Source: an uncultured Nitrospiraceae bacterium
GTDB taxonomy: Bacteria; Nitrospirota; Thermodesulfovibrionia; Thermodesulfovibrionales; SM23-35
NCBI GenBank assembly: GCA_963727775.1
Contig: CAVSHB010000003.1
Coordinates: forward strand, 416,001 to 480,000
Direction of reading: 5' to 3'
DNA length: 64,000 nt
A model generated the notes under the pieces. It worked only from the letters and a program-made list of their open reading frames with translations, ran no database searches and was not told where the DNA came from. The translations under genes were made by a program, and so were the position numbers. Shown here in pieces: positions 1-52,277 of this stretch (positions within the stretch are counted from its first letter, which is position 1; the number at the start of each line of letters is the position of its first letter).

Positions 1-1569
1 CCATTTCTCGAAATCAAACACTTCCGACCATCCGTCGAGCCTGCACCCGAGAGACCAGGCCTTCTCAATCAACAAGGAAAGCCCCTCATCACCACGGGCG
101 AAGGCGGCCTCCAAAAGGCTCATTTCCACACTATGACCCTTAATATTAAAGCCCCTTTTTATCAGCACATCCCTGAGATACTTCTTCTTTCTTTTCAGCT
201 CGTCGGAAGGGTTTTGCCCATACCATTGAAATGGTGTATGCGCTTTGGGTACAAAAGGAGAAACGCCCACATTGATATTAACAAACCTCTTTGTATACTG
301 TTTTGCGGTTTTGAGAGCTTTTAAAGCCATTCCTGGGATTGCCTCTATGTCCTCCCCGGTTTCGGTCGGCAAACCAATCATGAAATAAAGCTTGAGATTA
401 AGCCATCCTTCTTCGAATAATATCTTGAGTGATCGTTCATAATCCTCTCCGGAGAAGTTTTTATTAATAACTTTTCTAAGTCTTTCGGTACCTGCTTCAG
501 GCGCGATAGTGAAGCCGGTTTTGCGCACAGAGCGTATCTCTTTGAGGAGATCGGCGTTTATCGACGCGACTCTTAAAGACGGCAGTGAAAGCCCGATTTT
601 ATCTTTGGAAAATCGTCTATTAACTCCCTTTACCACCTGTAACAGGCAGCTGTAGTCCCCGGCGCTCAGTGAGGTGAAAGCGATCTCTTCGTAGCCCGTA
701 TTTCTCAGAGCTTTTTCCGCAAGCTCTAAGGCCTTTCCGGCGCTTCTTTCGCGGACCGGTCTGTATATCATGCCGGCCTGACAAAATCTGCAGCCCATAG
801 AGCATCCCCTTGATACCTCAATGTTTATCCTGTCATGGACGATTGCTGTATAAGGAACAATCGGGTTATCCGGATAAGGGGCGTCGTCCAGAGATTTGAT
901 GAAGCGCCGTTGGACCGGCCTGGAACCTGGGGCATGGAGTTTGAAGTTCCCGGATGAATTGTGGACCAGAGGGACATACATCCCTTCAATCTCAGAAAGT
1001 GCGCGGAGGAGCGAACCACGTTTTCCATCTCCGTCGGATTTCCACGCTTGGAATATGTCCAATATCTCTCTTATGACTTCCTCGCCGTCACCAATCAGGA
1101 ATGCATCAATAAAAGGGGACATAGGCGCAGGATTCACAGTGCAAGGGCCCCCGGCAATGACCAGAGGATAACGGCGACCGGATACCGAATTGTCCCTGTC
1201 TTCAGACTTAATGGGGATTCCGCCGAGATCCAGCATGTTAAGGACCGTTGTATATGAAAGTTCATACTGCAGGCTGAAGCCGACAATATCAAAATCTCTT
1301 AATGGAAGATTTGATTCCAAAGACGAGAGCAATGCTCCCCGCGCCTTCATCTCGGCTTCAAGATCGACCCATGGAGAGAACGCCCTTTCTGCAGACGCGA
1401 AAGGAAGGTCGTTAATTATCTTGTAAAGGATTTTGAGTCCCAAATGGGACATCCCGATTTCGTAAATGTCCGGGAAGGCAAGGGCAACTTTCACAGGAGT
1501 TTCCTTGTAAATGGAATTGATCTCTCTGTTTATGTACCTGCTCGGTTTTTGTAAAGAAGATAGATTCAC
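1..1569 (-). CDS. B12-binding radical SAM protein (TIGR03960-like), runs off the window edge
   Basis: Manual translation from GTG at 1569: VNLSSLQKPSRYINREIN...AFPDIYEIGMSHLG...FDIVGFSLQYEL...IAGGPC; the radical SAM CxxxCxxC motif (RGCSMGCRFC) is near 780-810. Not in the ORF track because it is open at the edge. Confidence 0.85.
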   Translation of the reverse strand, partial: MNLSSLQKPSRYINREINSIYKETPVKVALAFPDIYEIGMSHLGLKILYKIINDLPFASAERAFSPWVDLEAEMKARGALLSSLESNLPLRDFDIVGFSLQYELSYTTVLNMLDLGGIPIKSEDRDNSVSGRRYPLVIAGGPCTVNPAPMSPFIDAFLIGDGEEVIREILDIFQAWKSDGDGKRGSLLRALSEIEGMYVPLVHNSSGNFKLHAPGSRPVQRRFIKSLDDAPYPDNPIVPYTAIVHDRINIEVSRGCSMGCRFCQAGMIYRPVRERSAGKALELAEKALRNTGYEEIAFTSLSAGDYSCLLQVVKGVNRRFSKDKIGLSLPSLRVASINADLLKEIRSVRKTGFTIAPEAGTERLRKVINKNFSGEDYERSLKILFEEGWLNLKLYFMIGLPTETGEDIEAIPGMALKALKTAKQYTKRFVNINVGVSPFVPKAHTPFQWYGQNPSDELKRKKKYLRDVLIKRGFNIKGHSVEMSLLEAAFARGDEGLSLLIEKAWSLGCRLDGWSEVFDFEKW

Positions 1570-1729
1570 AGAATAAGGATACCATCTCAAATGGTTATTT
1601 ATCAAGGCATTACAGGCGACCTGCTGCATTATACCGCTTTGTTCTTCAGAGATATCCCGGGTGTCCTGATCAAAGCGAACAAACACACCGGTATGAATGA
1701 ATTCCTGTAACATGCTATAATACACGGCA

Positions 1730-2494
1730 ATGGAAAAAAGGAAGAGTTTCAACATATTTTTAGTTTTTTTAATTCTGTTCATACTTTCATGTTCTACGAA
1801 ACAGACGATCAAACCTTCAGAAAAATATGATCCTGAAAAAGAATTCGCGACTGCCAATGAACAGTTGGATAAGAAAGAATACGACCAGGCAAGGGCAGGC
1901 TTTCTTGAGGTTAAGAACAGGGATACATCGAAAAAATTAGCCCCTTTGGCCCAGCTAAAGATTGCGGATTCCTATGTCAAAGAGGAAGAGTTTGAGCATG
2001 CCGTTTCCGAATATCAAAAGTTCCTCGAAACATATCCCGACAATCAATATGCATCATATGCCCAGTATCAGATCGCGATGGTATATTTTAATCAGATAGA
2101 AGGTCCTGAAAGGGGATATGGGGGGGCGGCTAAGGCCCTCGAAGAATTCGAGAAGCTGAAGAAGATGTTCCCGAGGAATCCATACAAGGATGTTGTGGAA
2201 CTCAGGATCGAAAAATGTAAAAATACGATGGCCGAATATGAATACCTCGTCGGCAGTTTCTATTATAAAAAAGGTTCCTATAGCGCGGCGATTGGAAGGT
2301 TTGAGGGTTTATTGAAAAAGTATCCTGAATACAAAGGAGAGGCCGATGTCCTTTTTCTTACCGGCGTTTCTTATAAGAAACTGGGGCAGAAGGAAAAGGC
2401 CGCGGAGTATCTTGCCCGTCTCATTGAGAAGTATCCCAATAACAAATTCTCTAAAGACGCCAGGAAAGAACTTGCTTCTATTAAACCAAAGTAA
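1730..2494 (+). CDS. bamD: Outer membrane protein assembly lipoprotein BamD
   Basis: Lipobox (ILSC), TPR repeats, AQLKIADSY / FLETYPDNQYASYAQYQIA / YYKKGSYSAAIGRF motifs. Confidence 0.85.
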   Translation: MEKRKSFNIFLVFLILFILSCSTKQTIKPSEKYDPEKEFATANEQLDKKEYDQARAGFLEVKNRDTSKKLAPLAQLKIADSYVKEEEFEHAVSEYQKFLETYPDNQYASYAQYQIAMVYFNQIEGPERGYGGAAKALEEFEKLKKMFPRNPYKDVVELRIEKCKNTMAEYEYLVGSFYYKKGSYSAAIGRFEGLLKKYPEYKGEADVLFLTGVSYKKLGQKEKAAEYLARLIEKYPNNKFSKDARKELASIKPK

Positions 2495-2499
2495 ATCAA

Positions 2500-3165
2500 A
2501 TGCCGGAAAGATCCTTTGCCCCTGAAGTAACCAACGTCTACTATCCTGCATTCCTTAATCTCAAAGGGAAAAAAGTAATTGTTATCGGTGGCGGTAAGGT
2601 TGCGGAAAGAAAAATAGCTGCCTTACTTAAGACCGGTGCGGATGTAACGGTCATCAGCCCTGAAATTACACGAAAGATTGAGAAAGAGAAACAGAGAGCC
2701 GGGCTAAAACATATCCATAGACGGTACAGGAAAGGCGACCTGAAAAACGCATTTCTTGCGATTGCCGCCACTGATTCTCCAGGTGTCAATGACAAAGTAT
2801 CAAAAGATGCTTCCTGTCTTGTTAATGTAGTGGACACCCCTCATTTATGCAATTTCATTGTCCCGTCCGTTATAAAAAGAGGTCCTCTGACCATTGCCAT
2901 ATCAACCAGCGGCGTCAGCCCTGCCCTTTCGAGGTCAATTCGCAAGGAGCTTGAAAAAAGTTTTGGCCCTGAATTTTCAGATTATTTGAAAGCATTGAAG
3001 GCAATTCGTTCCGAAGCAGTCAAAACAATTCTGGATAAAAGACAAAGGGAAGAATTTTTAAAAGCTGTTGCGTCGGAAAAAATGATCCAGATGCTCAGAG
3101 AAAGAGGATTTAAAAAAACAAAAAAGGTTGCAACCGATTTATTCAGAAAAAAGAGGGCCACTTAA
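2500..3165 (+). CDS. Precorrin-2 dehydrogenase / sirohydrochlorin ferrochelatase (CysG N-terminal/SirC type)
   Basis: YYPAFLNLKGKKVIVIGGGKVAERK, VNVVDTPHLCNFIVPS, AISTSGVSPALS. Confidence 0.9.
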   Translation: MPERSFAPEVTNVYYPAFLNLKGKKVIVIGGGKVAERKIAALLKTGADVTVISPEITRKIEKEKQRAGLKHIHRRYRKGDLKNAFLAIAATDSPGVNDKVSKDASCLVNVVDTPHLCNFIVPSVIKRGPLTIAISTSGVSPALSRSIRKELEKSFGPEFSDYLKALKAIRSEAVKTILDKRQREEFLKAVASEKMIQMLRERGFKKTKKVATDLFRKKRAT

Positions 3166-3225
3166 TTCTCCATAAGCATTGCATTTGATATGGCTTAAAC
3201 AGTACAAGTATGGTAATATTTTGAA

Positions 3226-4119
3226 ATGGATATCCATCAGCTTAAAGTATTTGTCTCGGTTTTCAAGAACAAAAGCTTTTCAAGGGCCTCTGAAGAGATT
3301 CACCTTACACAGCCGACCATAAGCAATCATATTAAGGCGTTGGAAGCTGAGTTTGATTGCAAGCTGTTCGACAGGCTCGGCAGGACTATTATCCCAACAA
3401 AAGAGGCCGAGGTTTTATATAGCCATTCGATTGAACTCATCGAAAAAGCCAATGCCTTAAGAGAGACCATAGGGCAGTTTAAAAAGGACCTGTCAGGGAA
3501 GATAGTCATCGGTGCAAGCACAATCCCTGGAGTTTATTTAATGCCCCGTATTATGACGGAATTCCAAAAAAAATATCCTTCGCTTTCCTTTCAGATTCTT
3601 ATATCCGACTCCACGGGAATTACTGACAGCGTATCAAAGCACGAATTGCTTCTGGGTATTGTCGGCGCAAAACTTACCAATGAACAGCTAAACTACATAC
3701 CCTTTGTTGAGGATGAACTCATTGCCGTGTCATCGCCGGGATTAGGAAAGAATAATATAATGACGCTCAAAGAATTAATAACATTGCCTATGGTTTTACG
3801 TGAAGAAGGCTCGGGTACCCGGAAGGTGGCCGAAAAATTCCTGGAAAGCAAAGGGATCTCCCTCGATAATATTAAGATTGCCGGTATCTTCGGTTCTACT
3901 GATGCAGTAAAACAGGCAGTAAAAGCCGGTCTGGGGGTTTCTATCCTGTCGAAGTTTTCTGTGGCTGATGAGTTGGAACACAAGATCCTTAAAGAGATAA
4001 AACTTTCCGATATCCAGATGAAAAGAAGGTTCTACATAGTGACCCATAAGAAAAGGACTTTGCCCCGTGCCTACGATACTTTTCTGAAGTACATCATGTC
4101 TGAAACGAAGAACCTGTGA
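3226..4119 (+). CDS. LysR family transcriptional regulator (CysL/selenium-metabolism-associated type)
   Basis: N-terminal LysR HTH (SFSRASEEIHLTQPTISNHIKALE); GASTIPG and LREEGSGTR motifs. Confidence 0.9.
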   Translation: MDIHQLKVFVSVFKNKSFSRASEEIHLTQPTISNHIKALEAEFDCKLFDRLGRTIIPTKEAEVLYSHSIELIEKANALRETIGQFKKDLSGKIVIGASTIPGVYLMPRIMTEFQKKYPSLSFQILISDSTGITDSVSKHELLLGIVGAKLTNEQLNYIPFVEDELIAVSSPGLGKNNIMTLKELITLPMVLREEGSGTRKVAEKFLESKGISLDNIKIAGIFGSTDAVKQAVKAGLGVSILSKFSVADELEHKILKEIKLSDIQMKRRFYIVTHKKRTLPRAYDTFLKYIMSETKNL

Positions 4120-4179
4120 TGAGTTCCATCAATTTATAGTTTCCAAAGGGAATACGGAAAGCCTCTCATAGAGAAATAG

Positions 4180-6990
4180 CTATTTCATCTGATTAAGGGT
4201 CCTGCCGAGTTCTTCGAGGGCCTTTCCTGCTTCTTCGTACTTCCCTCTGCCCATGAGATTACGGTAGTTTTCGAAGGCCTTTGCCGCAGCGGCAGCGAGG
4301 TCTTTTCTTTCCGCTTTCTTTTCCTCTTTTGTTGCTGATGGTTTTGGTGTGGTGTAGCTTGCAGAACCCGCTATCTGCGGGAAGAATTTGCCGAGGGCCT
4401 CTTCAAAGGACGCGCCGTAGGCAAGCTGGTCGCCAAACACCACCACGACCCTTCTCAATTCAGGCATTTTCCCTACGGCTGCCTGGATATAAATAGGCTG
4501 TACGTACATGATGCGGTATCCGGACAATGGCACTGCGAGGAGGTTTCCGAACCTTACCTGGCTTCCTTGCTGGTTCCAGAGAGTGAGGTCCTTGCTTATA
4601 GTCTCGTCCTGATTAATGCGGATGCCGATCTGGAGCGGGCCATAGACCTGGCGGTCTTTAGGGAATTTGAAGAGCATCAGCTTTCCGTATTTATCGCCAT
4701 CGCACCGCGCCATGATCATGGATACCATGTTGTTCCTCGGACTATTCTTGTCAGTGCTGTAAGGGGAGAACGGGAGCGTAAGGACAAATTCCTCCTTGTC
4801 GGAATCGGGCAGTTTGGAAATCAGGTAATAAGGTGTGATGGGCTGCGCTTCCTCCGTCATTTTTGCGACCTTAGACACTTCCCAGGCGTCCTCGCGGTTA
4901 TAGAAAACGCCGGGGTCTGCCATGTGATAGATCGCATAAATGTGGCTCTGAATAGTGAGCAGGTCCTCGGGGTATCTCACGTGCGTCTTCAGTGATTCAG
5001 GCATGGCGTCAAAAGGTTTAAACATGGCCGGGAAGGCCTTTGCATAAGCCTGGATAACCGGATCGGTTTTATCGGCAACGTAGAAGTCCACCGAACCTTC
5101 ATAGGCATCCACCACTACCTTCACGCTGTTTCGTATATAGTTTGCATTTCCCATGGTAGGTTGGGAATAAGGATAGGTCGCTGCAGTCGTATAAGCGTCC
5201 CAGATAAAATAGATCTTTCCTTCGGCTATTACATGGTACACATCGCTATCGAAGGAGAGAAAAGGTGCGATCATTCGCACCCTGCGATTGATGTCCCGCG
5301 TGAAAAGAATGCGGCTTTCGGAAGTGAGTTCCTGGGTAGTGAAGAGCCTCAGTCCGTCGAAACGGATAGCGACGGCGAGTTTCTTCAGGAAGTTGTCGAT
5401 CTTAACGCCTGCTTTCCCTCCATAGGTATTCTGCGCGTTGGTGTCGCCTTTCGGAAAATCGAATTCTTTCAGCATGGTCTTGACGTAGACATGGTTGTAT
5501 GTCTCTTCGCCGAAGTAGATGCGCGGCTGGTCTATCTTAAGTTCGGGATAAGAGGCGACCGGCGGGATGTCCTTGATGTAGTATTCGGGCAGCCCTTCAT
5601 GAGTGAACTTGTTTACGGGAGCAGCGACATCTCCATAGCCATGTGTATATATCATTGTCTCATTCTGAAATGTCCTTGACTGGGCCGCGAGGCGTCCGAT
5701 ATTCAGCTCGCGCAGGGACAGCATGAGCTGGGTCAGTTTTCCGTTGATTATGTAGCGGTCGACGTCCACATCAGGGAAATTGTAGTAAAGGCGTATGAAC
5801 TGCGTCTGGTCGTTCACCGATTTGAGGATATCCGGCGCCCATAGTCGTATGCCGCCGATGATAGCCAGATCGCTTTGGGCGAGGACCCCGGTGGGCGACG
5901 GGTTGATGGGATAATCTATCTCGGTCACGTTCGTGAGTCCGTACGCTTCTTTTGTGAAATTGATGTTTCGTTCGAGGTATGGCTTTTCGAGCGGGAGCTC
6001 GTTCGGCGCGACCCTGAAGTGCTGGATTATCTCGGGGATTACCTTAAAACCGATAATCCATATCCCTCCGAGCAGAAGCGCACTTGCGAAATAGATCCCT
6101 ACGGTCCGTCTGGTGGAACTCGTGAACGATGCGTAGAGGAACAGAATGAGGCACCCTGTTAGAGCCGCGAGAGCAACAGTATAAGCAGGCAGCTGCGCGT
6201 GCAGGTCCGTCCAGCCCGCCCCGAATACAACGCCGCGATGGGAATAGAGGAGTTCATAGCGCGCGATAAAAGTGCCGGCGATAAAGACGAAGGTGCCGAA
6301 GAAGAAATTTGCGGAGATCTGTGTGACGAGACGGTGGATATAAGAGTTCCGGTCAAGGGTGTCCAGGTTAAATCCCTGGAATGTACGAAGGAGGGTATTC
6401 TCGACTGCATAGAGGCCGCCGACGAGAAAAAGAGAAAAGGAGAAGAGGCTGCCGAGCGAATCGACAATGAACTTCAAAAAGGGGAGCCTGAATATGTAGA
6501 ACCCTATATCTTTGAAAAATACAGGGTCTTCTTTTCCGAAGGGTACCGCGTTGAAGAAAAGGAGCGCCTCGTCCCAGTGTGCGGAGCTGATCGTGCCGGC
6601 AACAATAAACAATGGTATCTGGATGAGAAGGCCGGCGAAGAGTATGAACCTGGAGCGGTTATCTTTTACGGGCCATGGCCCTGTCTGTTTTTTTACACCG
6701 TGGTACCAGAAAAAGACATTTGCCAGGCCGAAGGGTATCGCGACAAATCCGCCGGCCAGAAAGAGCTTCGCCTGGAGAAACAGCACGCTCCAGTAGCGGC
6801 TTGCGTATCCAAGATTGTCAAACCAGAGCGATGTAAGGTAGACCTCACTGCCGATGTAGATGCCGGAAAGCACTACGACTCCGAGCAGTGCGAATGTGCC
6901 GGCTTTCTTGTAACGCCTTTGCTTCAGGTTGCGTAAGGCGGGTAGAAAGAAGATAAGGCCTATGAAAAGAAATATAAGAAAATTGAGCAT
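4180..6990 (-). CDS. UPF0182 family membrane protein
   Basis: 936 aa with N-terminal TM helices; DPVFFKDIGFYIF, YTHGYG, NYIRNSVKVVVDAYEG, FYNREDAW motifs. Confidence 0.9.
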   Translation of the reverse strand: MLNFLIFLFIGLIFFLPALRNLKQRRYKKAGTFALLGVVVLSGIYIGSEVYLTSLWFDNLGYASRYWSVLFLQAKLFLAGGFVAIPFGLANVFFWYHGVKKQTGPWPVKDNRSRFILFAGLLIQIPLFIVAGTISSAHWDEALLFFNAVPFGKEDPVFFKDIGFYIFRLPFLKFIVDSLGSLFSFSLFLVGGLYAVENTLLRTFQGFNLDTLDRNSYIHRLVTQISANFFFGTFVFIAGTFIARYELLYSHRGVVFGAGWTDLHAQLPAYTVALAALTGCLILFLYASFTSSTRRTVGIYFASALLLGGIWIIGFKVIPEIIQHFRVAPNELPLEKPYLERNINFTKEAYGLTNVTEIDYPINPSPTGVLAQSDLAIIGGIRLWAPDILKSVNDQTQFIRLYYNFPDVDVDRYIINGKLTQLMLSLRELNIGRLAAQSRTFQNETMIYTHGYGDVAAPVNKFTHEGLPEYYIKDIPPVASYPELKIDQPRIYFGEETYNHVYVKTMLKEFDFPKGDTNAQNTYGGKAGVKIDNFLKKLAVAIRFDGLRLFTTQELTSESRILFTRDINRRVRMIAPFLSFDSDVYHVIAEGKIYFIWDAYTTAATYPYSQPTMGNANYIRNSVKVVVDAYEGSVDFYVADKTDPVIQAYAKAFPAMFKPFDAMPESLKTHVRYPEDLLTIQSHIYAIYHMADPGVFYNREDAWEVSKVAKMTEEAQPITPYYLISKLPDSDKEEFVLTLPFSPYSTDKNSPRNNMVSMIMARCDGDKYGKLMLFKFPKDRQVYGPLQIGIRINQDETISKDLTLWNQQGSQVRFGNLLAVPLSGYRIMYVQPIYIQAAVGKMPELRRVVVVFGDQLAYGASFEEALGKFFPQIAGSASYTTPKPSATKEEKKAERKDLAAAAAKAFENYRNLMGRGKYEEAGKALEELGRTLNQMK

Positions 6991-11407: not shown

Positions 11408-11485
<78 letters not shown>

Positions 11486-11505: not shown

Positions 11506-12345
11506 TTACGTGTTTCCCCCGTTTTCAAGTGAACTGTCACCCTGTCTGTCTTTTTTCCCCAGATCGGTCAACCTCTCGATAGCCTCCTTTTCAAACTCCT
11601 CGGGAATCTGCACGTAGTATTTCATTGTCGTTTCAATATTGCTATGACCCATCCATTTCTGAAGAGTCTTGGGAGGTACCGCCGCCATAGCACATCTTGT
11701 TCCAAACGTCCTTCTCAAATCATGAATCCGTGCGTCTTCGATACCAGCACGCTTGCACGCACTCTTGTAGGCCCGCTTAAAGTCTCGGGGCGGTTTCATA
11801 CCTTTACCAAATATATACCCTGCTTTCCCGGTTCGCGCCTTCACGCGTCTTTCGAAAATTTCTCGTGCCCTCTTGTTCACGGGCACGAACCTAGTTTTGC
11901 CGCCCTTTCCCAAAAGTCGCAGCATACCAGTTTCAAAATTGATATCTGCGACTCGAATGTTTAAAAGCTCTTTTTTCCTCGGCCCACAGTTCAACGTAAT
12001 CTCGATCTTATCCTGCAAATCGATAGCCTCTGTTTCGGTCAGCCCGGTGGCCTTTTTCGGGATCTTTGGCGTTTCATCCGGGTAAAATTCTTCTATCGTG
12101 ATGCGGTTAAGTCTTATCAAGTCGACCTTCTCCCCTGTTTCTTCATATTTTTTTCTGAGTGCTTTGAGGCGTCTTGTAGGTTCTACCTTGCCACTGTACA
12201 TTTTGATGACTTTATCATATAGGTGAACTCCCAATAAGATGTTATTCAGCCACTCTATGGTATTTGTACTATGAGTCTCTGGTCCAAACCCACCGCTCAA
12301 CAGAGCCTGACAGATCTTTTCAATACTATGTTTCTTCAAATTCAT
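11506..12345 (-). CDS. Tyrosine recombinase/integrase, catalytic half
   Basis: R (GPRKKELL), K (GKGGK), HDLRR, MGH and TMKYY catalytic residues all present. Confidence 0.85.
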   Translation of the reverse strand: MNLKKHSIEKICQALLSGGFGPETHSTNTIEWLNNILLGVHLYDKVIKMYSGKVEPTRRLKALRKKYEETGEKVDLIRLNRITIEEFYPDETPKIPKKATGLTETEAIDLQDKIEITLNCGPRKKELLNIRVADINFETGMLRLLGKGGKTRFVPVNKRAREIFERRVKARTGKAGYIFGKGMKPPRDFKRAYKSACKRAGIEDARIHDLRRTFGTRCAMAAVPPKTLQKWMGHSNIETTMKYYVQIPEEFEKEAIERLTDLGKKDRQGDSSLENGGNT

Positions 12346-12946
12346 CCTCTCGAAATTCTCCAGAGCCCCTCTTGCATTCGCTGAGAAGTCTGTCGATTTC
12401 GGCCGTCGTGAAAATGCGTAAGCGTGCCTCTTCTTTTTTCAGCTTCATTTTCTCTCCATTATTTTGAGCCTTGCACGGATTCGAGCCTTTTCTGCGAAAT
12501 CCCCAGCTCTCAGCTTTCGTAAAAATGCCTTTGAGGACTGCAAACTCCCTATTTGCCATATATACCGAAACCTGGCCGTATCGACGAGTCAAATAGTTGT
12601 CGACATTCAGACGTTCAACCGCTTCCATAGATATTTGACCGAATTCGGCAACAAGCTTTTTGCATATGCTTTTGTAATCAAATTGTGTTTTTTCCCGCAA
12701 TGACTTAGCATGCTTTGGAAGGTAGTACTCGTTCACGAATTCGCCAAAAGCGGCCTGCTTAATTTTTCGTTCAGGGAATATTTTCCATTCGCGAATTTGC
12801 TCTTTGAGTTTTGCCTCATACTCGCGGGCAAGAGTCTTACGAGTAGTGCCGCAAGTGAAATACTGCATTTTACCGAACTCATTTCTCAAACGCACATCAA
12901 ATATCCCTGTCTTTTTCCCATTTTTGTCTCTTCGCTCTACTATCAT
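12326..12946 (-). CDS. Tyrosine integrase N-terminal half (arm- and core-binding domains)
   Basis: ANREFAVLKGIFTKAESWG...NP...RLRIFTTAEIDRLL is typical of the core-binding/catalytic junction; overlaps the next ORF by 20 nt in another frame. Confidence 0.8.
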   Translation of the reverse strand: MIVERRDKNGKKTGIFDVRLRNEFGKMQYFTCGTTRKTLAREYEAKLKEQIREWKIFPERKIKQAAFGEFVNEYYLPKHAKSLREKTQFDYKSICKKLVAEFGQISMEAVERLNVDNYLTRRYGQVSVYMANREFAVLKGIFTKAESWGFRRKGSNPCKAQNNGEKMKLKKEEARLRIFTTAEIDRLLSECKRGSGEFREDEFEET

Positions 12947-13296: not shown

Positions 13297-14205
13297 ATGG
13301 TTATTAACTATGAAAACATAATGAGAAACTTGAAACGTATTCGCAGAGACAAGAAATTATCTCAGCAGAATGTGGCTCAAAGATTAGGTGTGACTAAGGC
13401 TACAATAAGCTTGATTGAGTCTGGTAAGCTGTTTCCTTCTTTTGATATCATCAGCAATATTCCAGCTGCACTTGGGTGCCACACTATTGAGATACATGCT
13501 TTCGATCCTGAAACAGTAAATGCCTTTGAAAGTGTAATCGGAAGAGTACAGGACAGCTATGAGGTTGTGCTACCGCATGAGCATATATTGTCAGCAATTG
13601 CTAAGCATATTGGCGATATTCAAAGCCTTGGCAATAGATCTATGTATATCTATTTCAGAATCGAGTTCTTGAATAGGATACTGAAATTTTTTTCTTGGTT
13701 AAGTCAAGAGACTATTGAACGAATATTCGCCAAAGAAAGACCTGTTGCGAGGGACATTGCAATTTTCTTGGATTCGCTGCCGGATAATATCCTTAAAGAG
13801 GCCATTGGCAATAGAAAACTATCTGCATCGAAAACAGATGAAAACACCGGTAAAATGCTATTGAATTATATCAAAGATGAAAAATGCCTAGATTTGGAAG
13901 AGTCTCCCCCCTTGGAAGGTAACTACATTGCACCTATAATAGGAACCTATCTGGGTTTTGAGATACTTCCTAAGAATAGGCTGGAGCGATATTTAGATTT
14001 AATCACAGACATCCTCCGCAATAGGCCCGATCTTCTGCCATTGTTATACGTCACTATCAAGAAATTAAGCGAGGCACCTCGCATAGATAATCAGGACATG
14101 AATGATCTTAGGCACTATAAAGAATTGCCGGGAGACAAAATGTTTTTCGAAAGCAGGGTTGGAATTTATAAGACCATTGAGATCGACCCTCTTCCAGAGA
14201 ATTAG
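13297..14205 (+). CDS. XRE-family HTH repressor with long C-terminal domain
   Basis: LKRIRRDKKLSQQNVAQRLGVTKATISLIESGK; divergent from xis-int. Confidence 0.8.
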   Translation: MVINYENIMRNLKRIRRDKKLSQQNVAQRLGVTKATISLIESGKLFPSFDIISNIPAALGCHTIEIHAFDPETVNAFESVIGRVQDSYEVVLPHEHILSAIAKHIGDIQSLGNRSMYIYFRIEFLNRILKFFSWLSQETIERIFAKERPVARDIAIFLDSLPDNILKEAIGNRKLSASKTDENTGKMLLNYIKDEKCLDLEESPPLEGNYIAPIIGTYLGFEILPKNRLERYLDLITDILRNRPDLLPLLYVTIKKLSEAPRIDNQDMNDLRHYKELPGDKMFFESRVGIYKTIEIDPLPEN

Positions 14206-37777: not shown

Positions 37778-38608
37778 TCATCGATATGCAACGGCTGCAA
37801 TTTTAGGATCAACGAGCTTGATCGTCTCGCCCGGTCTTAGGCCGGTCAACTTGCTGAACGCATCGGCTCCTATTCTTTCCGACAGGGAATTCTGAAACTG
37901 TATGGCAGCCTCATTGATTTTATTGGCCAACTCTGCTCCCTTCAGCCTCGCGTTGATTATAGAATGCTTTTCCTTCAGAAAATCAAGGTGGATATTCTTT
38001 ATATTTTGAGGATCAATATTTAGGAGCGAATGTCTTATCAACAGTGCCGCCTCCTCATGAATCAATTCATGACTGGGAATTTTAAGTTCTTTGACGGCGG
38101 ATTTATACAGCTGCTTTATGTCCTGAAAAAGCACATTGCCGGAGTCCCTATTTTCTTCTAAGTACTTTGCGTAGCACTTGTTGTATACCGTAGTTTTCCA
38201 TAGATCAAGAAACGCCTGTTGAAGGGGAGTATCGAGGGGATTGAAGTCCCCGTAAGTTCCGTAGGCAAGGCTGCTCAACCCGTAACCCTTGACACCATCG
38301 TCGATGGTTATCGTCCGGCCAGATGAATAAAGGAACAAATTCGCAGTCTGGTGGCAAACTCCGTTGACAGCGTATACTCCGATACCAGCTGTGTCCTTGA
38401 TATTGAAGATATTCCTCCTGTAGCAATCCGCAACGTCATAAATTGCTGCGCATGAAAACCTCAGAGTACCGGGCGTTTCCGTAGAGGATTGATGATCCCC
38501 CCAGCAGTTGAAATAGGTATTCTTGTCAGGACACCTAATGTAAGTATGCTGGGCATATTCTCCCAGATCCCCTTTGACATCGTACGACCACAACTCGAAT
38601 GTTTCCAT
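37778..38608 (-). CDS. Hypothetical protein (possible permuted papain-like His...Cys fold)
   Basis: ATG with GAGGAG RBS; QHTY...CWG...GVCHQTAN pattern. Confidence 0.6.
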   Translation of the reverse strand: METFELWSYDVKGDLGEYAQHTYIRCPDKNTYFNCWGDHQSSTETPGTLRFSCAAIYDVADCYRRNIFNIKDTAGIGVYAVNGVCHQTANLFLYSSGRTITIDDGVKGYGLSSLAYGTYGDFNPLDTPLQQAFLDLWKTTVYNKCYAKYLEENRDSGNVLFQDIKQLYKSAVKELKIPSHELIHEEAALLIRHSLLNIDPQNIKNIHLDFLKEKHSIINARLKGAELANKINEAAIQFQNSLSERIGADAFSKLTGLRPGETIKLVDPKIAAVAYR

Positions 38609-38856
38609 GTTTCTCTCCTCTTGATTTTTTCGATACATCCTATTTTTTCGTTTGATAAATGCGCATCTGTCTTCGTGACATCTTGTCTCACGTCATCAAA
38701 CAATTGTCGCGGCAGTGATAGAGATGCTTCGCATCATCTACCATCAACGCCAGGAGTACATTCTAAACAGCATGCCACAATTCCTATTGAATCAAAAGTC
38801 TTCCTGAGAACATTAACTGCAAAGTAGTGATACTGCTTTCCCACTTCCTTTCGTAT

Positions 38857-39912
38857 TTATAGTTGTATGAATTCCTCCTGCATACTTGCCGGTTGCATGT
38901 TGTTCTGATCCCAAGTTTTGACTCTGACATAATGCTTCGCATCGTCCTCATTCTTTTCAGTCTCGACAAAAGTAAAATCCTTTCCCTTATCATACTCACA
39001 CCATGTTCCAGTATTCGCATATATATACATATCTTCGCTCTCTTCGTTCATTTCATCAACGCGCAATTTATTGAGATCCTTATTGTGGGTATGGCCGAAA
39101 ATGATGATTCTATTCCGCTGCCTCAGATTCCATACTACAGGCCAAAGATTGTTTAGTTCCGCTTCAGCTGCCGATTTGCGTGGAATTAGATCATCATTCC
39201 ACTGACTATAGAGATTGCTATATCTTGTCCTAACATCTTCAATAGTAATGCTATCGGAAATGGTCTTTTCAACAGCAGTATTTACATTCAACCCGGCCTC
39301 ACGGGCAGCGGTGTCAAAGACATCCAAGACTGTTCCCTCTGAAATATTTTTTATGAATGTTCCCAGGTAACTCATTAGACTGTTATCACTTCCCGTTCGG
39401 GTAGCATTTGTAGCGGCAACACGTGATATGTAATATCCGATAGGCAAACGATCTGTCACGTCATTGATGGGATCCGCCGCGCAAAACATTGTATGTTCGC
39501 TCCCATGTGCGGCTAAAATATCATCTTGCCGGTATTCGTTTTGAAAACCAATATGCGGGAAGGTGGCCCGCAAGAAAGTCTCCGTAAGCGCCATATCGTG
39601 ATTTCCCGGAACATAAATTGTCTTCTTATTGTCGGAAAGATTTCTTAGATTTCGGATGATTTTTCCGTTGATGCCTGCGGCGATAATATCTTCAAAAGTT
39701 GGAGGAGGCGTATCGACCGGGCAAACCCAGTTGTCCATGATGTCGCCAAGTAAGATTATCTCATCGACATCCGAGTCGTTCAAATAATTTAAGAAATCTG
39801 CAAAGGCAGAGGCTTCTCTTTCACTGAGCCAATCATATACATGTCCGACATAACCCGGTTGAAAACTCTTCCCTGCTCCCATATGCACATCACTCACAAA
39901 GATGCGTTTCAT
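38857..39912 (-). CDS. Calcineurin-like metallophosphoesterase
   Basis: SDVH, LGDIMD, GNHD, AHG and FGHTH motifs; start at MKRIF. Confidence 0.88.
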   Translation of the reverse strand: MKRIFVSDVHMGAGKSFQPGYVGHVYDWLSEREASAFADFLNYLNDSDVDEIILLGDIMDNWVCPVDTPPPTFEDIIAAGINGKIIRNLRNLSDNKKTIYVPGNHDMALTETFLRATFPHIGFQNEYRQDDILAAHGSEHTMFCAADPINDVTDRLPIGYYISRVAATNATRTGSDNSLMSYLGTFIKNISEGTVLDVFDTAAREAGLNVNTAVEKTISDSITIEDVRTRYSNLYSQWNDDLIPRKSAAEAELNNLWPVVWNLRQRNRIIIFGHTHNKDLNKLRVDEMNEESEDMYIYANTGTWCEYDKGKDFTFVETEKNEDDAKHYVRVKTWDQNNMQPASMQEEFIQL

Positions 39913-40297
39913 CTTTCCTCCTTTTCCGCCATTGCTTGTCACAGAACTGTGGAAGCCATCCGGATCCCGTGTCTGTGCCAGATTTCCGGCTGTCGATACT
40001 CGAAATGTCTCCTGGTGATCTTGCACCACCTATGCTTTCCAATGACATTTTTGCAAACCTCCTCTGAGCCGCCATGGTCTCTTTCTACTATAAGCAACGC
40101 TATATTGTTTGTCAATATAAGTTACAATCATATCTGTTCTTCTTTTACTAACATTTAAATGCTGCGAAATCAGCATCTTATATTGCGTTCATTTCTTTTT
40201 CTGAAATTGTTTTATATAATTATATAAATAGTCAGTGGGCATGTTACTTTAAGTAGCTCTTGATATTTTGTTAATAACAGTGTAAGATGGCGTCAAA

Positions 40298-40636
40298 ATG
40301 ATTGACAAGAACTTCGGGAATCTTATCTATATTCTCATAGGCAGGAAAATCAAGGCACTACGTGAGAAAGCAGAATATAACCAGGAAGATCTGGCAACCG
40401 GCATTAAGGTCTCCCGGGCATCAATTGCCAACTATGAAAGTGGAAAACAAGCTATCTATATTGATGATCTTTATAGGGTAGCCGACTTTTTCAAAGTTGA
40501 AGTACATTCACTTTTGCCATCATTACAAGAGATAAGGTCTCAGTCGTTGCCTGAAAAGATACTCGATACGGCGAAGAATCTCAAAACGAGCGAAAAACAA
40601 GAAATAAAAGATTTTATAAAGAAAGTACAGTCTTAA
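40298..40636 (+). CDS. XRE-family HTH regulator
   Basis: IGRKIKALREKAEYNQEDLA...SRASIANYESGKQ. Confidence 0.88.
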   Translation: MIDKNFGNLIYILIGRKIKALREKAEYNQEDLATGIKVSRASIANYESGKQAIYIDDLYRVADFFKVEVHSLLPSLQEIRSQSLPEKILDTAKNLKTSEKQEIKDFIKKVQS

Positions 40637-40652
40637 TGGAGGTCATTGCAAA

Positions 40653-41180
40653 ATGAGAGGTAAAAGGCATGCGAAGATGAAAGCCAAGAAGCTCCTCCAA
40701 CAGTCTCGGTTTAATGTTGACAAAATTGACGTCGAGAATAACGACTTGTCTATCAAGGTGGAAGAGATCGCCGATTCATTGAGAATCAAAATTATCCGAC
40801 ATTCTTTTTCAGACGACGTTTCCGGTGTGTTCTTTAAGAAATCTGATCAACTTTATTTAGGGGTGAATGAACGTCATCACTCTCACAGACAGAGATTTAC
40901 GATTGCTCATGAAATTGGACACTATATATTGCATTCCGGCGAAATTCTGCATTACGACGTTAATAAGCATGACTTAGAGAGGGTCTATTTTCGCGCTGAT
41001 AATATTTCAGATCTGAGCGAAATTGAAGCAAATCATTTTGCTGCTGAACTACTTATGCCAGAGGACTTGATTTACAAATGCATAAATCACGGTATCCAAA
41101 AAATAAAGGATTTGGCTGACAAGCTAGACGTCAGTGAAGATGCTGTAAGATACCGTTTAACAAACCTTGGACTTCTATAA
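40653..41180 (+). CDS. ImmA/IrrE family metallo-endopeptidase
   Basis: RQRFTIAHEIGH (HEXXH), EIEANHFAAELLMP, C-terminal VSEDAVRYRL. Confidence 0.92.
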   Translation: MRGKRHAKMKAKKLLQQSRFNVDKIDVENNDLSIKVEEIADSLRIKIIRHSFSDDVSGVFFKKSDQLYLGVNERHHSHRQRFTIAHEIGHYILHSGEILHYDVNKHDLERVYFRADNISDLSEIEANHFAAELLMPEDLIYKCINHGIQKIKDLADKLDVSEDAVRYRLTNLGLL

Positions 41181-41215
41181 ATTGCTCTTGATATATTGTA
41201 ACGTGAACCAAATTT

Positions 41216-42532
41216 ATGTCTAAACATTACCATGAGGTAAGAGATCCTATCCATATTTTTATAAAATATGACTCGTACGAGCGTGACGTTTTAGACTCTA
41301 AGCCATTTCAAAGACTTCGACACATACACCAGCTTGGCATGACCTATCTTTTATATCCGGGAGCAACTCACAAGCGATTTGAGCATTCATTAGGCGTCAT
41401 GGAACTAGCAGGTAAGGTCTACGATGTGATAACGCATCCTAACAATCTTCTTCCAGAAATCAAAGACATCCTGCCCGAAATTGAACATAAGAAGGACTAT
41501 TGGCGTGATGTGATTCGTATGGCTGGGCTTTGTCACGACATGGGGCATCTCCCATTTTCGCACGCTGCGGAGGATCTTCTTCCAAAAGGTTGGGACCATG
41601 AACGCTTCACTGTAGAATTGATTTATTCCGATGAAATGCAGAAGATTTGGAAAAAGATGAAAATCGCGCCCGAAGATGTGGCAAAGCTCGCCGTGGGACC
41701 TAAAATACTGAAAATAAAGAAGGAGCAGTTCAGCACGTGGGAGGCATTGCTATCTGAAATCATCATAGGAAATGCGTTTGGAGTTGACCGCATGGACTAT
41801 TTACTTAGAGATTCCCGCCACGCTGGAGTTTCTTATGGCAACTTCGATCTCAATCGTCTTATTGAAACTTTAAGAATACTTCCAAAAAGTGAAGACGTTC
41901 TCGAGCCAACCCTAGGAATAGAATATGGTGGTATTCATGCAGCTGAGGCCCTACTGTTTGCGCGCTACTTCATGTTTACTCAAATGTATCTTCACCCTGT
42001 GAGAAGAATTTATGACCTTCACCTGAAAGATTTTTTATGTGAGTACTTGCCTGAGGGGAAATTTAGTACTGATCTTAACAGTTTCGTTCATCTTTCTGAT
42101 AACCAACTCATGTCTGATATGATGTCTGCAACTGAAGGACCGGCCGGTAATCTCCGAACCTTTGCAAAAAGAATTATTCATCGAAATCATTTTAAGGTGA
42201 TGTATCAGAAAAATCCTGCTGATGCTCACTTTCGTGTTTTTGCTCCAGGGCGCGTCATTTATGAAGCAGCAAAAGTTGAATTTGGTGAGGACGCTGTGAG
42301 ATACGATACATATTCAAAAGAAGCAGGTGCAATTGATTTCCCCGTCCTTTACGACGACAGGAGGATTGTATCATCTCTTTCTGCGTCAGATGCATTATCA
42401 AGAATTCCTGATGCAATGATTGACTTTGTCTTTATCGATCCTTACAAGAGAGAAGCAGCTCAAAAATGGCTCACAAAAAATAGAGAAGCAATATTTAAGA
42501 AAGCCAAAGAAAGAGAAGAGGAGGAGGAATGA
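41216..42532 (+). CDS. HD-domain phosphohydrolase (SAMHD1/YwfO-like dNTP triphosphohydrolase family)
   Basis: RDPIH, FQRLRHIHQLG, YPGATHKRFEHSLG, CHDMGHLPFSH, DRMDYLLRDS, RYFMFTQMYLH. Confidence 0.9.
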   Translation: MSKHYHEVRDPIHIFIKYDSYERDVLDSKPFQRLRHIHQLGMTYLLYPGATHKRFEHSLGVMELAGKVYDVITHPNNLLPEIKDILPEIEHKKDYWRDVIRMAGLCHDMGHLPFSHAAEDLLPKGWDHERFTVELIYSDEMQKIWKKMKIAPEDVAKLAVGPKILKIKKEQFSTWEALLSEIIIGNAFGVDRMDYLLRDSRHAGVSYGNFDLNRLIETLRILPKSEDVLEPTLGIEYGGIHAAEALLFARYFMFTQMYLHPVRRIYDLHLKDFLCEYLPEGKFSTDLNSFVHLSDNQLMSDMMSATEGPAGNLRTFAKRIIHRNHFKVMYQKNPADAHFRVFAPGRVIYEAAKVEFGEDAVRYDTYSKEAGAIDFPVLYDDRRIVSSLSASDALSRIPDAMIDFVFIDPYKREAAQKWLTKNREAIFKKAKEREEEEE

Positions 42533-42535
42533 ATT

Positions 42536-43087
42536 ATGGGTACTATGGAGGGCTTGAAAAGAAAAGCTGTCTTATTATCACTTATTGAAAAGATGGATAA
42601 AAATAATAGTTGGTGTGGTGAAACCCATGTTCAGAAATGTTCTTATTTCTTACAGGAAGGTCTTGGCATACCAATGGGTTATGATTTCATTCTTTACAAG
42701 CACGGACCTTTCTCTTTTGATCTTAGAGACGAACTCTCAGAAATGCGATCAAATAGTTTTCTTATTCTTCAACCACAGTATCCCTATGGATCATCTTTTT
42801 CATTCGGTTCACTGGCGGATGATTTAAAGAAACAGTTCCCAAAAACGATCGCAAAATATGAACCAGCTCTAACTTATGTTGCAGAGAACATATCAAGAAA
42901 CAAGGTTTATGAATTGGAAAAGATTGCTACAGCTCTGTACGTTGTAAAAGAGGAGCGAATTGACAAAAAAAGAGCATGTGCAAAACGCATGAACGAGATT
43001 AAGCCACACATTTCCGTAGAAGATGCCAAGGTCGCGTGCGAGCGGGTTGATGCATTACTGAGAAACTGGGAGATGTCTAGATCCTAA
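42536..43087 (+). CDS. YwgA/Panacea-like small protein
   Basis: THVQKCSYFLQ...YDFILYKHGPFSFDL motif; starts 3 nt after the HD stop. Confidence 0.6.
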   Translation: MGTMEGLKRKAVLLSLIEKMDKNNSWCGETHVQKCSYFLQEGLGIPMGYDFILYKHGPFSFDLRDELSEMRSNSFLILQPQYPYGSSFSFGSLADDLKKQFPKTIAKYEPALTYVAENISRNKVYELEKIATALYVVKEERIDKKRACAKRMNEIKPHISVEDAKVACERVDALLRNWEMSRS

Positions 43088-43265: not shown

Positions 43266-45110
43266 TTAATCTGCTTCCTCAGAAATGTAATGGTCTAAAT
43301 AATTAGCAATAGTCATTTTTTGCCCTCTAATATCAATGCCAACCCGATTTATATAACCGTTCCAATCCCTTCCAAGATCATCTTCTATATACGTACGTTC
43401 TAGCTCCTCCTCATATTTCAGAAAAGCAACAAATTTCTGTGCACTTTTTTCACGGTTCTTCTGAGCATCAGCACCCTCCAATGACGGTCTGATTGGGATA
43501 TACTTTTCCTGAAGAGGCACAATAAATTCCTCTGGCATAGGCGTATCTTCGCAGACAAATCGAAGGTAACGTTTTGGTAATATACGAAAGTACATTTTTC
43601 CGCTCGATGATATGGAGAGAAGGCTATCAACAGTTAGATGTCCCGTATGGCGACCATGTTCGCTTTGCACAAGCCCATACTCAATGCATTTATTTATAGC
43701 TTTGTCTATAAGTTCCTTCTCATAACCATACTCTCCTAAAATATTGCAAATCTCAGAATAGGATACATTTTCAGAATTATTGACAAAACCAAGAAGTCTT
43801 AGTATCGAGAGCGTATTCCGAAAATTATTTGGTGCCAGTGACCCAGTTAAGTTAAATACATTGATGATATGACTTCCTGAAACATCATAGAAGGGGTAAT
43901 GTACGCACATTAAACACTCTAACGCTAAATTGGATGAAATTCGTTCGAATACCCCGGAAATCTTTACACTACCATCTGTTGGAGTGAAGATCGCCCTGAA
44001 TAGAGATGTCAAAGGTAATTTGCAACTATGGATAAAATTGTATAAGTTGCCCACTAAGAATTTCAAATTTCCACCAGCCAAGTCAACTATTAAATCTCTA
44101 AAATCGTGCTCTTTTTCAGAAGTAATATAAATTGAAAGCGCTTTTAAGAAGTCACAGGCTCCGTCCTTGGTTATCGTAATTCTTTTTGACATATCAGATG
44201 GTGGTGGTGGCCGATAGCCACGAGGAACGTAATCTACCTCCTGGCTATATTCTTTTGCAATTTTTGGAATTTCGTCGCGAGCATGATCAAGTTTCGAGCA
44301 CATAACACTCGCAGCTGATAGCGGTCTAAGTGCCTTGTGAGCAAAATGATCCTGATCCATAAATCTCTTGACAGTGTATTCTCTTACAGTAAGAAGCACT
44401 GTAAAAGGCATATTCGCAAATCCCCGCGCATGTTGTGCTATCCTAATCCCAAACCGAATCGCTTCTCTAATTGTTGTATCCGATAGTTCATCTATATTAT
44501 CTATTATGATCACTATACACTTGAAGCGTTTAAGATTTATTAAAGCCTCAATCAGATGTTCAGCACTCAGATCTCTTGCCATTCGATAGGCTTCTTCACT
44601 ACTTGCGGGAGGAAATCCCAAGGCAGAGAATAGTGTCTTGTAAAAGGCACCCTTGTCCTCATAAAGTTTAAATCTCTGAACAGCCTCAAAGGTGGCATCT
44701 TTCAGCAAATCGGTCAGAACGGTTTGATCACCACCTACTTCTTCGCGAGGCCAGATGTCTGCTCGAATAATGAGTACGTCTCCCGAAAATGAAGCAGGAT
44801 GCTTTTCGGCGAGGTATCTACAAAGTGTTGTCTTCCCTGATCCGACACAGCCATGTAATACATATACCTTGCCAATAGAGTTACTATGTTCAGCCGTCAA
44901 AATTCCTAGTAGCTCGTCTTCATAGGTAGTGCCGCTCGATTGGTCGCGAGTGATATAATAGTCAAGATCGGCAGCAACACCTCGATCAAACGCACTGTCA
45001 AAAGCTGAAATATATGAATGAAATAAGGGGTTATAGATTAAATAATCATCTATGTTCTTCTTAACACCGTCCAGTACACGAATTCTTTGAAAACCGGTGT
45101 CCGCATTCAT
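43266..45110 (-). CDS. P-loop NTPase with helical/winged-helix-like C-terminus
   Basis: Walker A HGCVGSGKTT, Walker B IIIIDNIDE, LAGGNLK. Confidence 0.75.
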   Translation of the reverse strand: MNADTGFQRIRVLDGVKKNIDDYLIYNPLFHSYISAFDSAFDRGVAADLDYYITRDQSSGTTYEDELLGILTAEHSNSIGKVYVLHGCVGSGKTTLCRYLAEKHPASFSGDVLIIRADIWPREEVGGDQTVLTDLLKDATFEAVQRFKLYEDKGAFYKTLFSALGFPPASSEEAYRMARDLSAEHLIEALINLKRFKCIVIIIDNIDELSDTTIREAIRFGIRIAQHARGFANMPFTVLLTVREYTVKRFMDQDHFAHKALRPLSAASVMCSKLDHARDEIPKIAKEYSQEVDYVPRGYRPPPPSDMSKRITITKDGACDFLKALSIYITSEKEHDFRDLIVDLAGGNLKFLVGNLYNFIHSCKLPLTSLFRAIFTPTDGSVKISGVFERISSNLALECLMCVHYPFYDVSGSHIINVFNLTGSLAPNNFRNTLSILRLLGFVNNSENVSYSEICNILGEYGYEKELIDKAINKCIEYGLVQSEHGRHTGHLTVDSLLSISSSGKMYFRILPKRYLRFVCEDTPMPEEFIVPLQEKYIPIRPSLEGADAQKNREKSAQKFVAFLKYEEELERTYIEDDLGRDWNGYINRVGIDIRGQKMTIANYLDHYISEEAD

Positions 45111-52228: not shown

Positions 52229-52277
52229 GACTCTTAATCAGCGGGTCGCAGGTTCGAATCCTGCACGGCTCACCATT
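52229..52277 (+). repeat. attR core, 49-bp direct repeat (3' fragment of tRNA-Lys)
   Basis: Identical to 11437-11485. Confidence 0.95.

Follow-up and report, generated by a model that had tools for sequence, protein, structure and literature searches.

Does a block of four genes in a genomic island of an uncultured Nitrospiraceae bacterium encode one dedicated defence system, or is only a part of it conserved? The block was studied in the window, i.e., the complete stretch of 64,000 nucleotides (nt) that was analysed (assembly GCA_963727775.1, contig CAVSHB010000003.1, positions 416,001 to 480,000). It consists of genes for a helix-turn-helix (HTH) protein, an ImmA-like zinc peptidase, and a SAMHD1-like HD-domain enzyme, and of a fourth gene, ORF4. 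A first-pass annotation, made from the letters alone, had proposed a dedicated four-gene system for inducible nucleotide depletion. Its description of tightly spaced, co-oriented genes could be confirmed, all four being intact and separated by gaps of 16, 35, and 3 nt, and the same was true for the motifs that it had reported as intact, H86-E87-x-x-H90 in the peptidase and H107/D108 in the HD enzyme. The dedicated four-gene system was not borne out. It is strongly supported that the HD gene and its partner ORF4 are a conserved two-gene unit, and a defence role of this pair is likely. Judged from sequence comparisons, the HTH and ImmA genes would be a local add-on outside of this core pair.

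The HD Gene and Its Partner Form a Conserved Unit

A first set comprised the 80 genome loci with the best HD matches, at identities of 49–58%. They belonged to Bacillota, Desulfobacterota, Chloroflexota, Acidobacteriota, Planctomycetota, Proteobacteria, Methanothrix, and others. The partner gene was found directly behind the HD gene in all 79 loci with downstream DNA, while an ImmA gene was present in none of the 73 loci with at least 700 nt of upstream DNA. Neighbourhood conservation, which the first-pass annotation had named as a check, was thus found for the pair and not for HTH-ImmA. A second set was built from even samples of four further phyla and contained 71 HD loci. The partner was present in 43 of 70 of them and in all 15 loci of the close clade, and ImmA was again missing upstream (0/62). 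Overall, 133 partnered loci were collected, 116 of them with at least 1 kb of upstream DNA; a few of the loci may stem from one genome that was retrieved twice.

The presence of the HD gene in genome samples was patchy (12/281, 7/281, 20/281, and 28/291, partnerless forms included), and a strong match was detected in 4 of 400 other genomes of the own phylum. At 24 housekeeping-like HD loci of this phylum the partner was never found. In a thinned tree of 112 sequences the partnerless HD proteins formed clades of their own. The distances between HD proteins and between their partners were correlated with an r of 0.83, a value that is inflated by kinship, while the highest value of 1000 shuffles was 0.37. 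The pair was also observed on viral contigs that are prophage-like (L099–L107, L316) and represent several HD clades, and all 21 plasmid records had identities below 40%.

The HD Protein Is a Likely dNTP Triphosphohydrolase

The best solved relatives of the HD protein were the same for sequence and fold, namely Aquifex 2HEK (phmmer E 4e-55), Enterococcus EF1143 (2e-31), and SAMHD1 (1e-29). The protein could be aligned directly with SAMHD1 (E 1e-27 to 1e-29). Foldseek yielded template modeling (TM) scores of 0.76/0.89 to 2HEK and of 0.73 to SAMHD1; normalized by query length, the values for all three relatives were 0.73–0.76. The SAMHD1 residues listed in the accessible part of PMC7311409 were mapped via an alignment to 5AO1, which has an offset of 92 from the full-length 7UJN row. 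The metal ligands H167/H206/D207/D311 corresponded to H57/H107/D108/D191 of the HD enzyme, and R164, H210, H215, and H233 to R54, H111, H116, and H128, while D218 was replaced by a glutamate (E119). All mapped catalytic residues were invariant across 83 homologues. Because the catalytic residues of SAMHD1 are retained and invariant, it is likely that the protein is a deoxynucleoside triphosphate (dNTP) triphosphohydrolase. Also kept were the equivalents of D137, Q142, R145, and R333, which are relevant to the nucleotide-activated tetramer of SAMHD1. The stretch aligned to R352/K354, residues with an allosteric role in SAMHD1, is devoid of basic residues. The assignment as a SAMHD1-like HD enzyme was therefore borne out by phmmer, fold, and catalytic residues.

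It was also considered whether the protein is one of the known anti-phage dGTPases, and this was rejected, as the NCBIfam model NF041026 scored 16.2 bits compared to a cut-off of 400. PADLOC gave no named system for the HD protein beyond Cas3-HD matches and a partial dGTPase match, which was confined to residues 23–123 (1e-8). Many giant-virus contigs (L108–L177) encode a SAMHD1-like HD protein, and no partner was detected on them.

ORF4 Resembles the Toxin-Binding Domain of DarG

ORF4 itself had no Pfam match, and no Panacea match was obtained at E values up to 1; its close homologues are named YwgA in the JGI database. PADLOC matched residues 164–309, the C-terminal half, of DarG (E 4e-12) and the N-terminus of PDC-M19A (9e-9), and a profile search against the C-terminal domain of DarG revealed weak sequence similarity (E 5e-4). 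The AlphaFold model had a pLDDT of 94.9. Foldseek matched it to the DarG C-terminal domain 7YK3 with an E value of 5e-6 and TM scores of 0.70–0.72, and a VIA comparison with this structure gave a Z score of 17.2 and a root-mean-square deviation of 3.9 over 167 aligned residues, while the next row had a Z score of 7.5. The DarG domain was the only clear solved relative. The model comparisons indicate that ORF4 is a stand-alone homologue of this toxin-binding domain, which binds DarT and occludes its active site, as described in the accessible part of PMC11481870.

The gathering cut-off of Panacea (PF13274) was passed by 5 of 48 more distant partners, and 7 more matched below it; a single weak match was found among 42 close homologues of ORF4. 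A single winged-helix family appears to comprise YwgA-like proteins, the C-terminal domain of DarG, and Panacea. The label of a YwgA/Panacea-like, antitoxin-type protein given to ORF4 in the first-pass annotation holds in view of the five members passing Panacea and of the complex model described below. The isoelectric point of ORF4 is 8.6, compared to a family median of 7.1. A search of a viral structure library yielded two weak matches to archaeal viruses.

In two loci an ORF4-like winged helix is fused to DUF488 (L191, 10043–10933; L405, 1815–2678), and the size and match range suggest that this fusion protein is probably PDC-M19A of PADLOC. Orphan second copies of the partner were observed near the pair in L015 (10022–10567) and L079 (7957–8457).

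A Complex of the HD Protein and ORF4 Is Predicted

With row-matched alignments, the model of the HD-ORF4 complex reached a score of 0.66, while the best of three controls reached 0.00. The mark was attained by 116 of 157 solved complexes and by 2 of 215 mismatched pairs, counts that are rough here since own alignments were used. The runs agreed in at least 89% of the contacts, and the pLDDT of the partner was at least 85. Structure and profile searches with ORF4 retrieved no solved HD-partner complex that the model could be recalling. The predicted contacts of ORF4 include the conserved residues E29, T30, Y54, Y84, G85, E128, K156, and H158, and the conservation of its predicted interface was 0.64, compared to 0.50 for the rest of the protein. 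On the HD side, residues 162–177, 224–232, and the C-terminal domain (337–438) would be contacted, while the catalytic residues would not be touched. The prediction thus supports a direct binding of the two proteins.

Partnered Loci Lean Toward Defence Genes

In the first set, a scan of the 273 nearest genes revealed 16 loci with a defence or toxin-antitoxin (TA) Pfam family (E up to 1e-8), and about 23 once BLAST clusters and further annotation were added. A matched comparison was made in the second set with 20 loci each from the 43 that have a partner and the 27 that do not; all of these were extended and scanned in the same manner. A defence or TA family was present among the nearest four genes of 7/20 partnered loci, but of 0/20 partnerless loci; the Fisher p of 0.008 is overstated, as the partnerless control represents only a few clades. 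A defence-leaning context, which had been claimed from the window, is supported by this difference. Several pairs were inserted within SNF2/DUF1156/DUF499 operons, and in one of these loci (L002, 2576–11219) the pair is directly followed by darT and a macrodomain gene, all within an SNF2/DUF1156 operon.

The pair also often resides in or beside surface-polysaccharide clusters (L399, L400, L402, L403, L404, L005, L015). In L401 (4596–9122) it is inserted between trmD and rplS of a ribosomal operon.

HTH and ImmA Are Probable Portable Regulators

The HEXXH motif of the peptidase and E123 were invariant in 42 homologues. The PADLOC match to capP (4e-31) covered only positions 17–153 of the 242 model positions, and the peptidase lacks the GAF domain of CapP, which helps to form the groove for single-stranded DNA (ssDNA) according to the accessible part of bioRxiv 2026.05.16.725639. 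It is therefore counted as ImmA-sized rather than as CapP, and membership in CapP was rejected for a protein of 175 amino acids (aa) without a C-terminal GAF domain. RmrA of RosmerTA was rejected as well, because the HTH protein and the peptidase are two separate open reading frames that each match a part of the RmrA models.

Among the 116 other partnered loci with sufficient upstream DNA, HTH-ImmA preceded the pair in a single one, L098. The gene order is the same as in the window; the HD proteins are 32% and the ImmA proteins 39% identical, and the two HD proteins are placed in separate clades with a support of 1.0 each. Because of this low identity and separate placement, the sequences indicate that HTH-ImmA was joined to the pair twice, independently. 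In L098 the four-gene side (2911–5849, plus strand) faces a divergent operon with ubiquitin-like/E2, JAB, and ThiF genes (235–2796, minus strand). Within the phylum, a close ImmA was found in 9 other genomes among 400, preceded by an HTH gene in 8 of them, and an HD gene was near none of the nine. Five of the nine face a ThiF-containing operon with JAB, DUF6791, or DUF6527 genes, and two face Tn7-like transposases. The downstream cargo was variable and included methyltransferases, HigBA, a restriction-modification (R-M) pair, and a DndB-like gene. The orientation toward ubiquitin-like operons of the Bub/Bil type agrees with two reports: in the accessible parts, 219 of 544 Bub operons carry CapW or CapH plus CapP (PMC13373217), and pairs like CapH/CapP serve many operons (bioRxiv 2022.04.27.489752). 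A phage-borne role of the ImmA kin was rejected, as the ImmA proteins in 80 viral loci were distant (28–47% identity) and none occurred with HD or ORF4.

The closest database homologues of HD (87%), ORF4 (85%), and ImmA (82%) are each a singleton on a 3655-base JGI contig. They are probably on one and the same contig, a close sister of the locus in the window, although their adjacency was not seen.

The intergenic region upstream of HTH contains promoter-like sites in both directions and a palindrome (Table 1). Altogether 16 promoter-like sites were found compared to 9.2 ± 3.4 in shuffles, and single sites are weak. A weaker, TG-extended site is located just before the HD gene (41168–41197), and no terminator-like site was found in the gap between ImmA and HD. 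Two divergent genes encode a metallophosphoesterase and a protein of 286 aa, and they may be an operon under the control of HTH-ImmA. The latter protein matched three unnamed Atlas clusters (0.95–0.96) and gave weak leads to TseH/IcsB-like papain folds (0.82).

Comparison With Known Systems

The claim that the genes are not recognised as a named system stood insofar as PADLOC assigned no system to the HD gene; it has to be modified because an HD + Panacea pair had been predicted before. Dataset S1 of the PanAT study (Kurata et al., 2022; PMC8832971) lists, under the predicted toxin cluster T34 (pT33), five rows in which an HD gene (YdhJ in CDD) is immediately followed by a gene with a Panacea domain, and two more that are filed as spurious. 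These pairs, with gaps from −17 to +23 nt, are from Ammonifex, Desulfofundulus, and three Caldicellulosiruptor; the searched parts of the main text do not mention an HD-Panacea pair. T34 is very likely the Panacea-passing branch of the family described here, because the Panacea-passing partners were all from one phylum sample, that of Syntrophomonadaceae L005. The pair shares the conserved two-gene operon with PanAT, and ORF4 of the window differs by its lack of a Panacea match.

ORF4 shares the fold of the DarT-binding domain of DarTG over its whole length, but the four genes include neither a macrodomain nor DarT, the enzyme paired with ORF4 is an HD hydrolase, and the predicted interface is not acidic. 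With SAMHD1, EF1143, and 2HEK the HD enzyme has the fold and the catalytic residues in common; it differs from SAMHD1 by the missing SAM domain, the non-basic stretch mentioned above, and a dedicated partner gene. The anti-phage dGTPases (Tal et al., bioRxiv 2021.04.26.441389) are, in the accessible part of that report, also HD dNTPase effectors in defence contexts, but they belong to another HD branch and could not be aligned directly to SAMHD1. The accessible part of PMC13519002 likewise concerns dGTPases. Clover (CloA/CloB; PMC12265719) is, as far as its accessible part describes, also a two-gene system with an HD dNTPase effector and a restraining partner, but restraint is exerted via a nucleotide made by a nucleotidyltransferase and not by a binding protein. 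Membership in Clover was rejected because a CloB nucleotidyltransferase is missing and the partner is a winged-helix, DarG-like protein. The regulators resemble CapH + CapP (Lau et al., bioRxiv 2022.04.27.489752), described in the accessible part as an HTH repressor and a HEXXH M78 peptidase beside immune operons. The window pair lies about 27 kb from the integrase, unlike ImmR/ImmA. The latter typically adjoin the integrase of their element.

The literature search retrieved no paper that describes the HD-partner pair; a survey of HD dNTPases (Nicastro 2023, NAR gkad879) was outside of this search and may describe it. Term searches of Ernits 2023 (PMC10440598; text and supplements) and Payne 2024 (text) gave no match to the pair.

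Possible Functions of the Pair and of Its Regulators

The preferred reading is that the pair is a TA-type defence module. The HD enzyme would destroy dNTPs, and ORF4 would bind its C-terminal domain and loops in the vicinity, at a distance from the catalytic residues, and would hold it off, probably by preventing the oligomer from assembling or the enzyme from being activated allosterically. Infection would release the enzyme, and the phage would be starved of DNA building blocks. HTH-ImmA would be a portable switch, likely responsive to DNA damage, that would control the operon at this locus. The chances of the full model with an inhibiting partner are about even, and a defence module of either kind, with an inhibiting or an activating partner, is reasonably probable.

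Several observations weigh against this reading. The complex model supports binding only and is silent on inhibition versus activation, the predicted interface of HD shows little conservation (0.40 compared to 0.67), and that of ORF4 has a net charge of 0 (6 K/R, 6 D/E), unlike an acidic mimic of ssDNA. The gene for the enzyme precedes that for the partner. A defence neighbour is missing at most partnered loci (13/20; about 57/80 in the first set), only four of the seven positive loci are of restriction type, and five of the 20 lie within surface-polysaccharide clusters. In addition, a homologous pair occupies a housekeeping locus of Priestia megaterium (pta-lipoyl ligase-rsfA-DUF1450-HD-169 aa), in which the 169-aa protein is homologous to ORF4 (hhalign 92%, E 5e-7). 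Listeria and B. thuringiensis keep the same HD locus without the partner, and thus the enzyme is tolerated alone in that branch. The Priestia pair, which we take to correspond to ywfO-ywgA of Bacillus, resembles the window pair in its gene order and differs by its housekeeping surroundings and by the absence of the partner in these relatives. The literature search found no study on ywfO-ywgA.

Could the pair thus be a mobile enzyme of nucleotide-pool housekeeping with a tuning or activating subunit, without an anti-phage role, that reached variable regions via horizontal transfer? The Priestia locus, 2HEK and EF1143 as the nearest solved relatives, the many partnered loci among metabolic or polysaccharide genes, and the failure of every anti-phage dGTPase model to reach its cut-off would fit. 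Such a role is nevertheless rather unlikely in view of the patchy presence of HD, the insertion of the pair into restriction-type operons, the partnerless clades without defence neighbours, and a partner fold that is otherwise known from antitoxins and DUF488 fusions. Alternatively, within a defence module ORF4 could be a sensor or activator that would use its winged helix to bind DNA or a phage product and would then turn on the enzyme attached to it. The winged-helix fold, a predicted non-acidic binding site away from the active site, the nearly invariable retention of the partner, and its orphan copies in L015 and L079 are in accordance with activation, but both characterised relatives of the fold, Panacea and the C-terminal domain of DarG, bind toxins and thereby neutralise them, and activation is regarded as improbable.

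For the regulators, a dedicated and conserved four-gene system, in which ImmA cleaves the HTH repressor and thereby triggers nucleotide depletion, would explain the repeated gene order of L098, the probable sister contig, and the missing terminator between ImmA and HD. It was rejected as a conserved system, as the pair recurs without HTH-ImmA and relatives of HTH-ImmA serve other operons; the divergence of the HD proteins of the window and L098, the nine relatives of the phylum without HD, and the fact that the regulators of L098 also face a JAB/ThiF operon leave it very improbable. Another explanation is compatible with the other readings and has a tentative standing well above that of the four-gene system: HTH-ImmA would control the divergent metallophosphoesterase operon or the excision of the island, and HD-ORF4 would ride along as a passenger under a separate promoter. 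Of the promoter-like sites, the best one is directed at the divergent genes, the TG-extended site stands directly before HD, and relatives of HTH-ImmA face divergent operons. The distance to the integrase, and an HTH-like gene that the integrase has beside it (13297–14205), speak against excision.

The widest generalization of the preferred reading, that a SAMHD1 homologue under a protein inhibitor is a widespread TA-type immune system, and that its antitoxin brings together YwgA, Panacea, and the toxin-binding domain of DarG in one swappable winged-helix family, falls somewhat short of an even chance. Known bacterial nucleotide-depleting defences use dGTPases that are only distantly like SAMHD1, while the HD enzyme described here aligns with it directly, and its partner gene accompanies it across many phyla of bacteria and, among the archaea, in Methanothrix. 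If the generalization is true, bacteria would have a defence of the SAMHD1 branch that the work on dGTPases did not find, and Bacillus ywfO-ywgA would gain a mechanism. The link of the partner to DarG, Panacea, and YwgA would widen the range of toxins neutralised by that fold. With just two genes, the pair allows one to ask cleanly whether the SAMHD1 branch itself acts against viruses in prokaryotes and whether such an enzyme can be switched off by a protein.

The Locus and Its Genomic Island

The four genes have a GC content of 0.398, compared to 0.45 for the genome, and the HD gene is present in a single copy. They are located on an island of 40.8 kb, which ends with identical 49-bp repeats and carries integrase-like open reading frames at its left end (Table 1). 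The R-M, PIN, and TA neighbours that had been reported were recovered with Pfam as an Eco29kI-type restriction endonuclease with its methyltransferase, two PIN genes, and ParE/Phd pairs.

Table 1. Positions of the genes, candidate control elements, and island boundaries in the window.
Feature	Position	Strand	Size	Remarks
Left 49-bp repeat	11437–11485	+		3′ end of tRNA-Lys; island boundary
286-aa protein	37778–38638	−	286 aa	no Pfam family; divergent from HTH-ImmA
Calcineurin-like metallophosphoesterase	38857–39903	−		divergent from HTH-ImmA
Divergent intergenic control region	40087–40288	.		promoter-like sites both ways and palindrome
Promoter-like site toward divergent genes	40115–40087	−		11 of 12
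AT-only palindrome	40211–40228		18 bp	candidate operator, weak
Promoter-like site before HTH	40260–40288	+		9 of 12; ends 9 nt before HTH start
HTH gene (XRE/HTH_3 repressor, CapH/ImmR-like)	40298–40636	+	112 aa	Pfam HTH_3 E 2e-11; PADLOC capH 1.4e-10
Peptidase gene (M78 zinc peptidase, ImmA-sized)	40653–41180	+	175 aa	Peptidase_M78 PF06114 E 6e-24
HD gene (SAMHD1/EF1143/Aquifex 2HEK family)	41216–42532	+	438 aa	core gene 1; Pfam HD + HD_assoc_2
ORF4 (YwgA-like winged helix)	42536–43087	+	183 aa	core gene 2; predicted binding partner
Right 49-bp repeat	52229–52277	+		identical to left repeat; island boundary

The integrase-like gene (11506–12946, minus strand) consists of two overlapping open reading frames of 279 and 206 aa and may be broken. 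Further cargo between 11437 and 52277 includes RHS/YD proteins, a repeat protein of 3466 aa, a resolvase, R-M, PIN, and TA genes, IS110, and a replication-like HTH_36 gene. A gene for a STAND-like P-loop ATPase of 614 aa (AAA_22, NPHP3_N; 43266–45110, minus strand) converges on ORF4 and lies beside a gene for a membrane protein of 188 aa.

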